This document shows positions 10,928 to 57,826 of a stretch of 64,000 nt of DNA, piece after piece; the stretch's first letter is position 1, and the number at the start of each line of letters is the position of its first letter. The stretch covers positions 7,260 to 71,259 of the IMG/VR virus record IMGVR_UViG_3300027740_000183; one strand, 5' to 3'. The stretch is from a virus. Under the pieces are notes generated by a model, which did no database searches, had not been told where the DNA came from, and worked only from the letters and a program-made list of their open reading frames with translations. Position numbers and translations under genes: made by a program.

Positions 10928-11054
10928 TTGTAAAAAGGGATTAAAAGGTATCCCAGCCCCTTATAGACTGGGACATACTATAAACTTTGTTTTTATAATT
11001 TATGTTAAGTTGTAAAGAGATTTAAAGGTATTCCAGTGCCTTACAGATTGGGTA
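10928..11054 (+). repeat. Two tandem leader+CRISPR-like repeat units (repeats at 10939-10974 and 11019-11054)
   Basis: GATTAAAAGGTATCCCAGCCCCTTATAGACTGGGAC and a degenerate copy, each preceded by TTGTAAA; homologous to the array repeat at 46251. Confidence 0.85.
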
Positions 11055-11064
11055 TATTAATTTA

Positions 11065-12567
11065 ATGATTTCAGCTCGTTTAATATATAAAAATTCTGCC
11101 TCTTCCAAAGAGTTTAATTTAACTCGTTCTCAGATTATAGATAGGGGTATTTATAGCGGGGGTGCGTTAACAAATAACCCCGCTTCTTTTATCTTATCAA
11201 TAGCTCCCTTTGTAGCGTCAAGTTACGACGGTATGGTTATAGTAAGTGATGTAACGGAAACACTTACTATTACTGATGGTATAATAAGTTATGTGGTACT
11301 GTATGCTAAATATCAAAACGCTACCATACCGACACTACAACTAGTTGCTCTTGATGAAGCTACTTGGCTTACCTCTGCCAATAAAGACTACTTCATTACT
11401 TTTGCTAAAATAGACTTAACAGTGCCTTCTGGTGGTATACCTACCAGTGCAATCACCTATAACGAATCTGATTATGCGGAAACTCTAGGAAAAAGTCCCA
11501 TAAAGAGATCAGTAGCGAACGCGGCCGCGCTGCCTATAGTACAGAATAGGGAAGGGGATTTGAGAGTAACTACAGATACTGGGCACATCTGGAGCTGGAT
11601 TTCTGGTGCTTGGGTAGATTTGGTAGTACAAACAGCGGCAGCTACAACTTACACAGGTGGTCCCAATTGGGCTGATGGGGTAACAAACCCAGCTACTACT
11701 GTGGAATTACAGCTTGACAAAATTATCACTAATCTGGCAACCGCAGGAGGTTCCGCTAAAATTTATAGCAATGGGATTGCAGGTGCCCCAGATTCTATTG
11801 GTGCAGGTACTCTTTATAGCGCGCTGACTCAATTATTAGGACTTTCTAACATCAGGGGAAGACTTTACGAACAGAATGTTTGGACAGAGCTGAACCAATT
11901 TATAAACAGTAATGCTGGTTTTTATGCCGCATCATTTGAAACTACTAATCCTGCTCCTGCTGTCGGATCCGTTAGAGTGGTTCCACAAGCGGTAGAACCT
12001 ATTATACCTCAGGATGGGGGGCATTATGCTAACAGTGTAACTAAAACTTATAAAATAGCAGAAAACAATGAATGGAGAATAGTTAGTGAGCAGAGAAGTA
12101 GTAGAGTATTTTTGTATCCAATTACAAGTTTAGTGTCTAATTATAATGCTACTGGTTGGTACTTAGAAGATTATTGTGTGTATTGGCACAAAGGTGTGAG
12201 CGCATCTGCGCTTATTTTAACAGCTTCTTTGAACAATTTTATACCCGATGGATGTACCGTAACCAGGGTACGCGCTTATGTTACCCCAGGAGCAATCAGG
12301 GCACCTGGTAATAGGATGCGTTTATGGGGATACAGAAGAGCTAATAGCAGCGAAGTGCCCGCTGTTTTTGGGGGATTTCTTGCTTTTCCAGAAGATGATG
12401 GGACAACAAATCCTCAATGGATTGCTGCAAATGGGTTAACGCAAATTATTGATACTGATGCGTATCATTACCAAGTAGGCGTACGATCTGGGTCAGGTTC
12501 TGGGGGTGATAAGTTATTATCTTTAGAGATTACTTATACAGAGGGTAATTATCTTGCTGTACCCTAA
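11065..12567 (+). CDS. Probable virion structural protein (tail fibre/baseplate-associated)
   Basis: Beta-rich, G/T/A-rich; N-terminus resembles ORF 31075. Confidence 0.5.
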   Translation: MISARLIYKNSASSKEFNLTRSQIIDRGIYSGGALTNNPASFILSIAPFVASSYDGMVIVSDVTETLTITDGIISYVVLYAKYQNATIPTLQLVALDEATWLTSANKDYFITFAKIDLTVPSGGIPTSAITYNESDYAETLGKSPIKRSVANAAALPIVQNREGDLRVTTDTGHIWSWISGAWVDLVVQTAAATTYTGGPNWADGVTNPATTVELQLDKIITNLATAGGSAKIYSNGIAGAPDSIGAGTLYSALTQLLGLSNIRGRLYEQNVWTELNQFINSNAGFYAASFETTNPAPAVGSVRVVPQAVEPIIPQDGGHYANSVTKTYKIAENNEWRIVSEQRSSRVFLYPITSLVSNYNATGWYLEDYCVYWHKGVSASALILTASLNNFIPDGCTVTRVRAYVTPGAIRAPGNRMRLWGYRRANSSEVPAVFGGFLAFPEDDGTTNPQWIAANGLTQIIDTDAYHYQVGVRSGSGSGGDKLLSLEITYTEGNYLAVP

Positions 12568-12595
12568 ACCCTAAAAAATTAAGGATTAAAAATTA

Positions 12596-13687
12596 ATGAC
12601 AACAAAGATTTTAAAGAGATGCAGTGAAGATGCTCGTGTAACATTTATGTTGTTGCGCGAATTGCTCATTAATTGTGTAGGTTATACAGATATTTATACA
12701 GATGATGATGGGTCAGGAGCTTTTACAGCCTCTCAAACAGGAGTAGATGGGGAAACGGATATCAATAACCCCCAAAATTTTGTAGCCGCTTCTGGTGTTT
12801 TTGGTCCAGGTGATGTCGGTAAATACTTGGTTGTTTGTGATCCTTTGTTGCTTCATCATAACAATGTAGGTATTTATAAAATTGTTGGTGCTCCTAATAG
12901 TACCACACTTGCTATTCAAGGCGGATTATATGGTGGTTCTTTTACAACAGGAGTAGGTTTTACTTGGCGTTTAATGGATCCTGCTGGTGTACCTCCTGCC
13001 TTAGCGGGTTTTGATCTCACTTATGTAGTTCAAGCAGTATCGGGAACTAATCCGATATGGCAAGCAGAATTTTACCTTGCTGACGCAGATACTGTCAGTT
13101 TTAGAATTACCGTTGGTCCTGGGGGAGGTTACGATTCCACATTGTTGCCAGGTATTCCTTGGACATTATCTTATACAGATCCTGTTACCATGACTTGTGA
13201 TGTCACTTCTTTATGGACTATATTGGCAAGCGATAGTTACATTAGAATGTATACAGAAGCTGTTGGAGGTGCATCTGTATTTAATTTAGGGTATGTAGGT
13301 GCGTGTATACCAAGAAGATCTGCTGCAGATCAACAATTTGCTGTGTGCTTTGCCGACATTCCTTTAACCGCACTTACTGCTATAAAGTCTGTTGCGTGGG
13401 ATGGGGCTACCAAAGTAGATTATAGTGCTATTTATTATGGGGATCTTTTTCCTTCTAATATATTTACTGCATTACCTCCTTCTCAATTTGATTTAAGAAA
13501 CGATTCCGCACTTATTGCAATGGGTTGCGAAACAGCGGGGTCTTTAGAAGATGATAGAGGTACTTTGAACGGGGTATGCTGGATTAGTGATTCAATACCT
13601 TACAAAACTTTTGTGGATAATAGTAGAAGGGTACTGTCGCTTGGATCTGGAATTTCGATTGAGTGGGACGGCACAGTCGGGCGTTAG
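12596..13687 (+). CDS. Probable virion structural protein
   Basis: Beta-rich; shares GDVGKY.....P...N motif with next ORF. Confidence 0.5.
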   Translation: MTTKILKRCSEDARVTFMLLRELLINCVGYTDIYTDDDGSGAFTASQTGVDGETDINNPQNFVAASGVFGPGDVGKYLVVCDPLLLHHNNVGIYKIVGAPNSTTLAIQGGLYGGSFTTGVGFTWRLMDPAGVPPALAGFDLTYVVQAVSGTNPIWQAEFYLADADTVSFRITVGPGGGYDSTLLPGIPWTLSYTDPVTMTCDVTSLWTILASDSYIRMYTEAVGGASVFNLGYVGACIPRRSAADQQFAVCFADIPLTALTAIKSVAWDGATKVDYSAIYYGDLFPSNIFTALPPSQFDLRNDSALIAMGCETAGSLEDDRGTLNGVCWISDSIPYKTFVDNSRRVLSLGSGISIEWDGTVGR

Positions 13688-13721
13688 AAAAACCTGAAAG
13701 TTTAGTAATTAAGGAAAAATT

Positions 13722-57012: not shown

Positions 57013-57015
57013 TAC

Positions 57016-57246
57016 TTATTTATTTACAAAATCATTAGCCTTCCAGACAGCGTCTTCCATTTCGTGCGCATCTACTATATCAAGCACTTTAGTATTTTTT
57101 ACTAGAAATACAAGATACTTACCACCACGGGGGCTCAAGGAGGTATGTATGTGTGCTTCTTTTTGTGTTGTAGGGTTTTGTATTATTTTTATCGCGCAAT
57201 TAATCATGTTTTTACCCTTTCGTGGTGCCCACATATTTAGTAACAA
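57016..57246 (-). CDS. Hypothetical protein
   Basis: ORF track. Confidence 0.45.
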   Translation of the reverse strand: MLLNMWAPRKGKNMINCAIKIIQNPTTQKEAHIHTSLSPRGGKYLVFLVKNTKVLDIVDAHEMEDAVWKANDFVNK

Positions 57247-57772
57247 GTTCTTTTAGATAATTTTCGTCTATTTTTAACACTTGTTTTACTATCTCCACAG
57301 ATTTGTATTTAGAGATCACCCAAGTAAGTATTGTTTTTATGTTTGCGCCATATTTTGTTTCTATTTCGGCAACTTTTGGGTTATACTCAGCCGCACAGCG
57401 TTCACAGCAGTAGTGGAATATTTTATCATCTAGTTCTATTTGTTTATGCCCCTCTTTTATAAGTTTTTCACAACATAAACATATTTTATCATTATTCAAT
57501 ATCGTAAATTCTTTTTCTAGGGAAGAAAAATTAGGTACTTGTTCTCTTAATATCTTTAACGCAGTGTTAAAATCTTTTTTAATAGTTTTAATAGGTTTAC
57601 CTACCAATAAACTGATATCATATAAGGATAATTGGTTACTGCCTTGTTGTTCCATATAAATAAGACAACAATTGTATATATTTTTATACCTAGTGTGATA
57701 AATGCACCCTTCGTCAATACAATCAGTATTGATGAGTACCTGTGTTTTTGGGCATGTGGTTTTGAAGTTCAT
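57212..57772 (-). CDS. Putative DNA-binding regulator: sigma70 region-4-like HTH plus Cys-rich Zn finger
   Basis: LSLYDISLLVGKPIKTIKKDFNTALKILR; CLCC...YCCERC. Confidence 0.55.
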   Translation of the reverse strand: MNFKTTCPKTQVLINTDCIDEGCIYHTRYKNIYNCCLIYMEQQGSNQLSLYDISLLVGKPIKTIKKDFNTALKILREQVPNFSSLEKEFTILNNDKICLCCEKLIKEGHKQIELDDKIFHYCCERCAAEYNPKVAEIETKYGANIKTILTWVISKYKSVEIVKQVLKIDENYLKELVTKYVGTTKG

Positions 57773-57779
57773 AATGTTT

Positions 57780-57826
57780 TTTGCAGTTTATAAAGTGCTG
57801 AGATATTTCTTAATCATCTTTTACAA
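57780..57826 (-). repeat. Degenerate leader+repeat unit
   Basis: TTGTAAAAGAT GATTAAGAAATATCTCAGCACTTTATAAACTGCAAA; 26/36 identical to the 10939 copy. Confidence 0.65.

Follow-up and report, generated by a model that had tools for sequence, protein, structure and literature searches.

A single 36-nt repeat of the kind found in clustered regularly interspaced short palindromic repeat (CRISPR) loci is dispersed through a fragment of a large tailed phage, where its 15 full-length copies all lie between genes and in the sense of the gene downstream. The fragment is one contig of 137,151 bp from an uncultivated virus (IMG/VR record IMGVR_UViG_3300027740_000183), and the stretch analysed here (the window, 64,000 nt) corresponds to positions 7260-71259 of that contig and holds nine of the full-length copies. 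The copies form an orphan array of 3.5 repeats, a mini-array of two repeats and ten solitary copies, and one further copy is decayed. Because the anatomy of the locus fits that described for viral solitary repeats, the reading ranked first, tentatively and with a little less than even confidence, is that these are solitary repeat units (SRU) similar to RNA anti-CRISPRs (Racr), which would give phage transcripts a Cas-binding handle, the array and mini-array supplying guides.

Copies were counted over the whole record with an nhmmer profile hidden Markov model and a covariance model with filters off. The scores were cleanly split, with the 15 full-length copies at 43-59 bits and everything else at 12 bits or below. 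In shuffled sequence 0 matches were expected, which together with the bimodal score distribution ruled out chance or an assembly artefact. The copies named in an earlier reading of the DNA made without database searches (hereafter the sequence-only reading) were all recovered, far beyond chance, and the sense orientation that it had noted held for every full copy of the record. For about 11 independent loci, the odds are roughly 0.09^11 for the intergenic position and 0.5^11 for the orientation.

In the array (Table 1) three perfectly identical 36-nt repeats follow a truncated one, separated by unique spacers of 35, 37 and 36 nt with a period of 72-73 nt; it has what defines a CRISPR array, namely at least three near-identical repeats of 23-55 nt with unique spacers of similar length. 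An HK97-fold capsid gene starts at 46724, 3' of the array and its terminator. The two repeats of the mini-array have diverged and their spacer contains an internal tandem duplication; 9 nt separate the second repeat from the ATG at 45228, with a GGAGG ribosome site in that gap. The other distances to start codons that had been reported were likewise confirmed: 10 nt from the end of the copy at 11019 to the ATG at 11065 of a 500-aa open reading frame (ORF), 40 nt from the copy at 55883, whose flank carries a tandem 16-nt duplication, to a PHP-domain gene (55842-55153), and 7 nt from the decayed copy (57780-57815, about 75% identity to the G18/C30 variant of the repeat) to the ATG at 57772. That copies stand directly upstream of genes was correct for most of them, an exception being the copy at 38101, which is followed by terminators and no convincing gene. 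Judged from its sequence, this unit looks like a stand-alone small RNA with its own termination.

Outside the window are six full copies, all on the - strand (genome positions 74154, 79666, 96684, 106580, 106947 and 107754). One operon in that region carries three copies. The first is a perfect repeat about 60 nt 3' of its own TTGACA-17-TAAGAT promoter, the second starts in the last codons of an 88-aa ORF, whose stop it contains within nt 2-6, and is separated by 14 nt from the next ATG, and the third begins 15 nt past a stop and ends 18 nt before the next ATG. In the remaining copies the distance from repeat end to start codon is 9-55 nt. No other repeat occurs within about 100 bp of the copies at 38101 and 55883 of the window or of any of the six outside it.

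All solo or first copies in the window are preceded by TTGTAAA(A/G), 9-11 nt before repeat position 1, as the sequence-only reading had stated; the rule breaks down for three of the six copies outside the window (107754, 106947 and 106580), which have no separate box and two of which are intercistronic. Over the record, TTGTAAA[AG] was found at 19 intergenic sites in sense orientation against 2 in antisense. A repeat follows in only 10 of the 19; repeat-free sites are found upstream of the two TnpB genes, of a HEARO RNA, of a tRNA-like gene and of ordinary genes. Two TTGTAAA sites have the form TTGACA-16 nt-TAAAAT, with 11 of 12 matches to the sigma-70 promoter, and at one of these the hexamer ends 2 nt from the repeat. 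Since the box is intergenic, sense-biased and twice placed within TTGACA-16-TAAAAT, the presumed leader TTGTAAAAGA is best read as a predicted -10 box of the phage's common sigma-70-type promoter, lying outside the repeat. The proposed 47-bp unit of leader plus repeat was abandoned, because the box also drives repeat-free genes and the repeat is therefore to be regarded as a 5'-terminal or intercistronic RNA module.

With the spacing of the box fixed at 9-11 nt and a start about 7 nt past the hexamer, transcription is predicted to begin at repeat nt 5-7. Conservation of the solo copies begins at this predicted start (A7-A12 are invariant and A5 nearly so), and positions 1-3 vary freely among them (GAT, TAC, GAC, AAT) against GTA in the array. 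We infer that most solo copies form the first ~30 nt of an mRNA, which would start with a ready-made repeat handle. By promoter prediction most copies thus have a promoter of their own, as solitary repeat units do. A tRNA-like gene with a four-base anticodon (cgta), found with ARAGORN at L002:9748-9819 (-) and below the Rfam tRNA threshold, has its own TTGACA-16-TAAAAT promoter, near-identical to that of the neighbouring solo repeat.

Two helices were predicted in the repeat, one of 6 bp (nt 13-18 with 30-35), which ends one base short of the 'spacer' side, and one of 5 bp (nt 7-11 with 20-24). They interleave as a predicted H-type pseudoknot with loops of 1, 1 and 5 nt. Standard pairs fill 91% of the pair cells of 18 copies, and pairing falls to about 50% when the partner is shifted by one column. 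At pair 18-30, eight copies have A-U, six have G-C and two have G-U, and about 15 cells hold G-U, where pairing is possible in the sense RNA only. An RNA structure consistent with the orientation is plausible on this modelling. Unpaired positions are as conserved as paired ones, a pattern that fits recognition by a protein. The purely DNA-level site that the sequence-only reading had offered as an alternative is weakened, because the orientation follows transcription strictly and the G-U substitutions pair in sense RNA only.

Pattern scans for the repeat required about 20 fixed bases, so that a diverged host repeat would escape them. Within that limit neither the pattern nor a relaxed form of it was found in one genome each of 185,579 prokaryotic species, the pattern was not found in IMG/VR, and no array with this repeat was seen in the species genomes or in JGI metagenomes. 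A relaxed IMG/VR scan (promoter plus 5' half of the repeat) gave nine loci, all false positives. The Rfam CRISPR-DR families gave no match even at E=10, and no match to the repeat sequence was found in the literature or in the Racr supplement. Among JGI metagenome contigs the repeat occurred on two only, L006 and L007, both from one sample. These carry three strong copies, each with a TTGTAAA box and just upstream of an ORF, and a divergent one on the other strand, 10 nt ahead of the ATG of a gene that runs in the same direction as this copy. At the DNA level the units of the record and of L006/L007 are 82-98% identical, and the surrounding 8-10 kb resemble the record only in a fibre-like gene and in a single structural homologue, a distant one. 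Both contigs recur in two other datasets. As the record is a fragment, L006 and L007 may be relatives whose homologous parts fall outside it. Neither random orientation nor loss in related phages was seen, the copies being in sense everywhere and the unit recurring in two contigs. Of the proposal that the phage reuses the repeat as a genome-wide 5'-untranslated region (5'-UTR) module, the sense orientation, intergenic placement and retention in two related contigs are borne out. Promoter-proximal solitary repeats, in some cases co-transcribed with a gene, have already been described in viruses (PMC10651486), and gene control here is possible.

The sequence 3' of the repeat was also found in more than one copy. 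Four copies, namely the one at 38101, the last of the array, the one at genome position 79666 and one in L007, run straight into a GGACGGAC(GGA) tract (in L007 GAACGGACGGA), and L006 has a single GGAC at this place. Tracts of (GGAC)n type extend the last four bases of the repeat at 38137-38149, 46432-46455, L002:9653-9666 (-) and L007:4105-4126 (-); no sites complementary to the GGAC tract were found in the record. Spacer 3 of the array has a 10-nt block in common with the sequence flanking 55883, at nearly equal offset, and both this flank and the spacer of the mini-array contain a tandem duplication immediately 3' of the repeat. This suggests that repeat and flank were copied together, and the flank may be functional.

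The absence of cas genes from the window was correctly noted by the sequence-only reading; the window does hold a HEARO RNA. The Cas-type partner that it suggested found no counterpart in the record, in that no cas1, cas6 or effector for the repeat was detected. RNA-guided nucleases of transposon type are nevertheless plentiful there, with two TnpB genes and an IscB gene (Table 1). Cas1 and Cas6 profiles gave no match in a six-frame translation of the 137-kb record, and about 70 ORFs, including all of at least 350 aa, gave no Cas-type match in Pfam, PHROGs, NCBIfam or PADLOC. No cas genes stand beside the array, where the neighbours are two ORFans (no homologue among 5.8 billion proteins) and the capsid gene; the latter (370 aa), considered as an effector, was identified as the HK97-fold capsid protein. 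The large ORFs of unassigned function were likewise rejected as effectors, with no Cas-type match in those databases or in PDB. The largest (1194 aa) is tail/baseplate-like, another (825 aa) is tape-measure-like, and one of 386 aa, common to the record and L006/L007, is fibre or head-spike-like. No trans-activating CRISPR RNA (tracrRNA) or anti-repeat was found anywhere in the record. Since the record is only about 35% complete, an effector for this repeat may be absent from the fragment yet encoded in the rest of the phage.

Table 1. Positions of the repeat copies and of associated features. Positions are those of the window unless prefixed by L003 or L004; strand as given.
Feature	Position	Strand	Remarks
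-10 box TTGTAAAAAG and solitary repeat (10939-10974)	10928..10974	+	5 mismatches to array repeat
Second -10 box TTGTAAAGAG and degenerate solitary repeat (11019-11054)	11010..11054	+	10 mismatches
-10 box and solitary repeat (38101-38136)	38091..38136	+	3 mismatches to array repeat
GGACGGACGGACC tract, then weak (38144-38160) and strong (38192-38220) terminator-like hairpins	38137..38220	+	3' of 38101 repeat
-10 box and mini-array	45099..45218	+	Repeats 45110-45145 and 45183-45218, 37-nt spacer
Two ORFan genes	45228..46030	+	125 aa and 138 aa; separate mini-array from array
Orphan CRISPR array	46201..46431	+	15-nt truncated repeat 46201-46215; repeats at 46251, 46324, 46396
GGACGGACGGATGGACGGACC tract and intrinsic terminator (46555-46581)	46432..46581	+	Tract 3' of last array repeat
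-10 box TTGTAAAAGA (55929-55920) and solitary repeat (55918-55883)	55883..55929	-	5 mismatches
-10 box (57826-57817) and decayed repeat (57815-57780)	57780..57826	-	Both stems destroyed
TnpB paralogues	L003:9004-10467; L004:12226-13680	-	487 and 484 aa, 87% identical; outside window
IscB	L003:11439-12662	-	407 aa, RRXRR and HNH; preceded by HEARO RNA
HEARO RNAs (IscB guide RNA), three	window 58340-58601; L003:12653-12913; L003:13847-14095	-	

In the reading ranked first, the repeat handle would be the binding or processing site of a crRNA (CRISPR RNA)-binding Cas-type protein encoded outside the available sequence, either by the host or in the phage DNA that the record lacks. Guides for that protein would come from the array and mini-array, and the solitary units would supply it with phage transcripts, which would serve as Racr-like decoy or hijack RNAs made on one transcript with the genes downstream; the 38101 unit would be a dedicated small RNA. 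As a side effect, phage mRNAs might be cut or marked at the intercistronic copies. Several points weigh against this reading. The searches gave no partner for the repeat. For the spacers, nothing was found in the phage's own sequence, among GenBank phages or in IMG/VR, databases that may lack the targets, and neither spacers nor pseudo-guides gave a self-targeting or regulatory match within the phage. Mimicry of a host repeat is unsupported by the searches, because the repeat was not found in the genomes, IMG/VR or Rfam and its metagenome matches were to phage contigs only. Covariation is modest, its observed values being attained by 36-44 of 500 shuffles, the stability of the hairpin by itself is nothing unusual (z = -0.8), and the transcription starts are predicted from sequence. 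Ten solitary units in 137 kb are far beyond the expected need of a decoy, and the 9-18-nt spacing to start codons and the intercistronic copies point to a role in cis on the mRNA.

Because copy number, closeness to start codons and intercistronic copies misfit a simple decoy, the cis-acting expression module of the sequence-only reading stays viable. As a gene-control module it would depend on a phage-encoded Cas-type RNase or RNA-binding protein, located in the missing ~65% of the genome or among unannotated ORFs, which would bind or cut every repeat to give mRNA units with a protein-bound 5' handle and so set mRNA stability or translation, with the array in the same regulon. This we consider unlikely. 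It accounts for the high copy number, for the several copies 9-18 nt from a start codon with the ribosome site in the gap, and for the operon with one 5'-UTR copy and two intercistronic copies 14-18 nt before the next ATG; the low completeness of the record leaves room for the protein, and large phages carry compact Cas12-type systems without cas1 or cas2. It is opposed by the fact that no such protein was seen, the large unassigned ORFs looking structural and the profile and database searches described above being negative, by the lack of a common functional theme among the downstream genes, and by the 38101 unit and the array, which have no gene to control. A related and equally improbable proposal takes the CRISPR repeat as a general handle on phage messages, with genes in place of spacers, so that one Cas-type protein would both take guides from the array and process or protect about ten transcripts or gate their translation. 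A Cas-independent origin was also weighed, and given the same low probability: a mobile regulatory cassette of promoter and stem-loop, resembling the promoter(early) stem-loop (PeSL) elements, would provide a structured, mRNA-stabilising 5' end, spread by homologous recombination and reshuffle gene cassettes, with the array as a captured or secondary by-product. In PeSLs a terminator and a promoter are combined in one motif, through which modules are shuffled (PMC2839356, PMC4122927). Such spread agrees with the high identity of the unit in L006/L007 amid flanking genes most of which have no detectable similarity, with the flanks that travel with the repeat (the tract in four copies and the block common to spacer 3 and 55883), and with the tandem duplications directly 3' of several copies. 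Recombination does not, however, predict array repeats that are identical, lack a promoter box and alternate with unique 35-37-nt spacers, and the 10939/11019 pair shows what promoter-cassette recombination looks like. Conservation is as high in the loops and at unpaired positions as in the stems, which suggests specific recognition by a protein, and the hairpin is weak as a stabiliser.

Least probable, and in our view very doubtful, is that the effector is already at hand in the two TnpB paralogues (Table 1), as a proto-Cas12 taking guides from the dispersed repeats and the array. These are the only RuvC proteins of the record and lie 43 and 59 kb from the array. Pfam assigns them Cas12f1-like TNB and OrfB_IS605 domains, their best PDB match is the zinc-ribbon region of CasPhi-3, and the RuvC D-E-D residues are conserved. 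Both have the TTGTAAAAGA box, one ends 285 nt upstream of a solo repeat, and their only close relative (83% identity) is on the same 64.6-kb contig as L007-type repeats, a linkage equally explained by exchange of mobile elements between phages of one host. Against such a role stand the boundaries of the genes, which are those of an insertion sequence (IS): conservation of the unit starts 52 nt ahead of the ATG, box included, and ends 15 nt past the stop, and homology between the paralogues ends 12-15 nt past the stop, as it does for three copies in the 485-kb huge phage LR745208.1. Because the similarity stops just past the stop codon, the TnpB genes look like self-contained IS-type elements with a guide RNA inside their own 3' end. 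The family is multi-copy and widespread without arrays, other phage contigs included. The genes thus combine the RuvC D-E-D residues, zinc ribbon, unit end just past the stop and multiple copies of TnpB elements, and a RuvC effector linked to the array and using its repeat, as in Type V (Cas12) systems, was not found. No anti-repeat is present, and pairing between the repeat and the TnpB transcript was no better than in random windows. Proteins of TnpB's small size need a long scaffold RNA, not a 36-nt repeat. A nuclease-dead TnpB repressor was considered and rejected, as the D-E-D residues are conserved. The IscB gene, too, looks self-contained from its sequence. The HEARO RNA of the window overlaps a 188-aa ORF without family matches and has a TTGTAAAAAT box upstream.

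The consequences differ between these readings. If the units are decoys, RNA anti-CRISPR mimicry would be built into a whole promoter class and not into one locus, the CRISPR type concerned would be one not yet catalogued, and the repeat could lead to its effector, whether that is encoded by the host or by phage DNA absent from the record. Repeats acting in cis on mRNAs would make this the first example of a virus that has recruited CRISPR RNA processing to its routine gene expression; with genes as spacers, crRNA biogenesis would have been exapted for that purpose. In either case the locus is a simple testable system, in which the RNA is 30 nt long, the promoters are defined and compensatory changes occur in natural variants.

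The source virus is a large tailed phage of which only a fragment is available. The record is linear and without end repeats (CheckV completeness ~35%), and encodes a portal, the HK97-fold capsid protein, tape-measure-like and fibre-like proteins and a large terminase that is distant kin of jumbo-phage terminases (~30% identity). Further genes are those for an NAD-dependent DNA ligase, a DnaB-type helicase, a Toprim protein and a ClpX-like ATPase, with many ORFans. Genes run on the + strand to ~55.8 kb, on the - strand to ~116 kb and on the + strand beyond (genome positions), and a crude ORF map leaves about 9% of the record non-coding. Two genes at 38577-41646 (-) of the window are opposite to the surrounding + block and resemble host-derived cargo; one encodes 647 aa with three Big_5 Ig-like domains and an ice-binding-like domain, and the other a 370-aa OmpA-family protein. 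At 41997-43994 (+) an SNF2-type helicase is divided between two adjacent ORFs, a 362-aa N-terminal ATPase and a 284-aa Helicase_C. The same N-terminal peptide (~MNKNIxNRLxKVA) opens at least seven small genes of the structural block (2434, 18160, 22579, 23946, 26682, 33460 and 36433 (+), probably also 34506 and 34865) and recalls a capsid-targeting or propeptide signal. The one assigned region of a 787-aa protein of that block (26942-29305 (+)) is a 2H-phosphoesterase (LigT / 2'-5' RNA ligase-like) domain at residues 170-271, an enzyme class whose substrates are 2',3'-cyclic phosphate RNA ends. Tandem duplications were seen at 3255-3600 (148 nt, 99% identical) and 54448-54778 (154 nt, 84% identical), and a 15-nt coding repeat AATAGCGAGGAAAGT is present in about five tandem copies at 17963-18052. 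A second dispersed motif has a GC-rich terminator hairpin (CCCACC...GGTGGG) with GGGCTTTCTCGCTACGGAGA after it, and is oriented with the gene every time (18075-18099 and 22232-22256 on +; 50180-50224, 54306-54350, 57896-57940 and 63670-63697 in sense on -). It once directly adjoins a TTGTAAAAAG box and is possibly a terminator/promoter composite.

Among known systems the closest are the solitary repeats of viruses, which lie directly 3' of a promoter and at a distance from cas genes, some acting as RNA anti-CRISPRs, and of which RacrIC1 is bicistronic with AcrIC5 (PMC10651486). Like these, the phage has single promoter-proximal repeats without nearby cas genes, some of them predicted to be co-transcribed with a gene, with mini-arrays alongside. 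The SRUs described so far were detected through their resemblance to catalogued repeats, and in 83% the subtype agrees with that of the host, whereas the present repeat matches no catalogued family or searched genome. The phage also differs in having at least ten copies in 137 kb, including intercistronic ones and ones 9-18 nt from start codons, and in that Cas binding or inhibition is here a prediction from anatomy. Orphan arrays and mini-arrays of viruses are exemplified by the mini-arrays of Sulfolobus viruses, the arrays of huge phages and that of cyanophage N-1. The present ones resemble them in having 1-3 spacers, no adaptation genes and a presumed use of Cas machinery encoded elsewhere, and differ in that no spacer target was identified in the databases searched, that the first repeat is truncated at its promoter-proximal end and that the array is directly upstream of the major capsid gene.

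With the T4-type PeSLs (PMC2839356, PMC4122927) the units have in common their dispersal in a large myovirus-type genome, a host-type promoter and stem-loop upstream of ORFs, conservation at the DNA level and a tie to modular exchange. A PeSL, however, is a terminator stem-loop followed by an early promoter, marks indel junctions where related genomes are compared and never includes spacer-containing arrays, whereas here the promoter precedes the structure, which is identical to a CRISPR repeat. In type II-C arrays (Neisseria, Campylobacter) a promoter inside each repeat starts the RNA in the spacer. There, as here, the 5' end of a CRISPR-derived RNA is set by transcription and not by processing, but in the phage the promoter is outside the repeat, the RNA is predicted to start with the repeat, and there is no tracrRNA or anti-repeat. 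The regulators crlRNA, CreR/CreA and tracr-L (bioRxiv 10.1101/2024.12.27.630466) join a repeat-like handle to a fixed pseudo-guide, which in the phage would be the conserved GGACGGACGGA tract of four copies, with promoter targeting as a possible function. Those regulators are encoded by the host beside cas genes and have known targets, whereas for the GGAC tract the phage sequence yielded no target. In phage T7, RNase III sites are structured intergenic elements at which polycistronic mRNA is cut into stable units. They share with the repeats their conservation, their structure and their sense orientation between genes, but are recognised by a general host RNase and are without array or promoter coupling. 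The locus is thus of a known kind, a viral orphan array with promoter-coupled solitary repeats, and what is new is the density of the copies, their intercistronic placement and the uncatalogued repeat.

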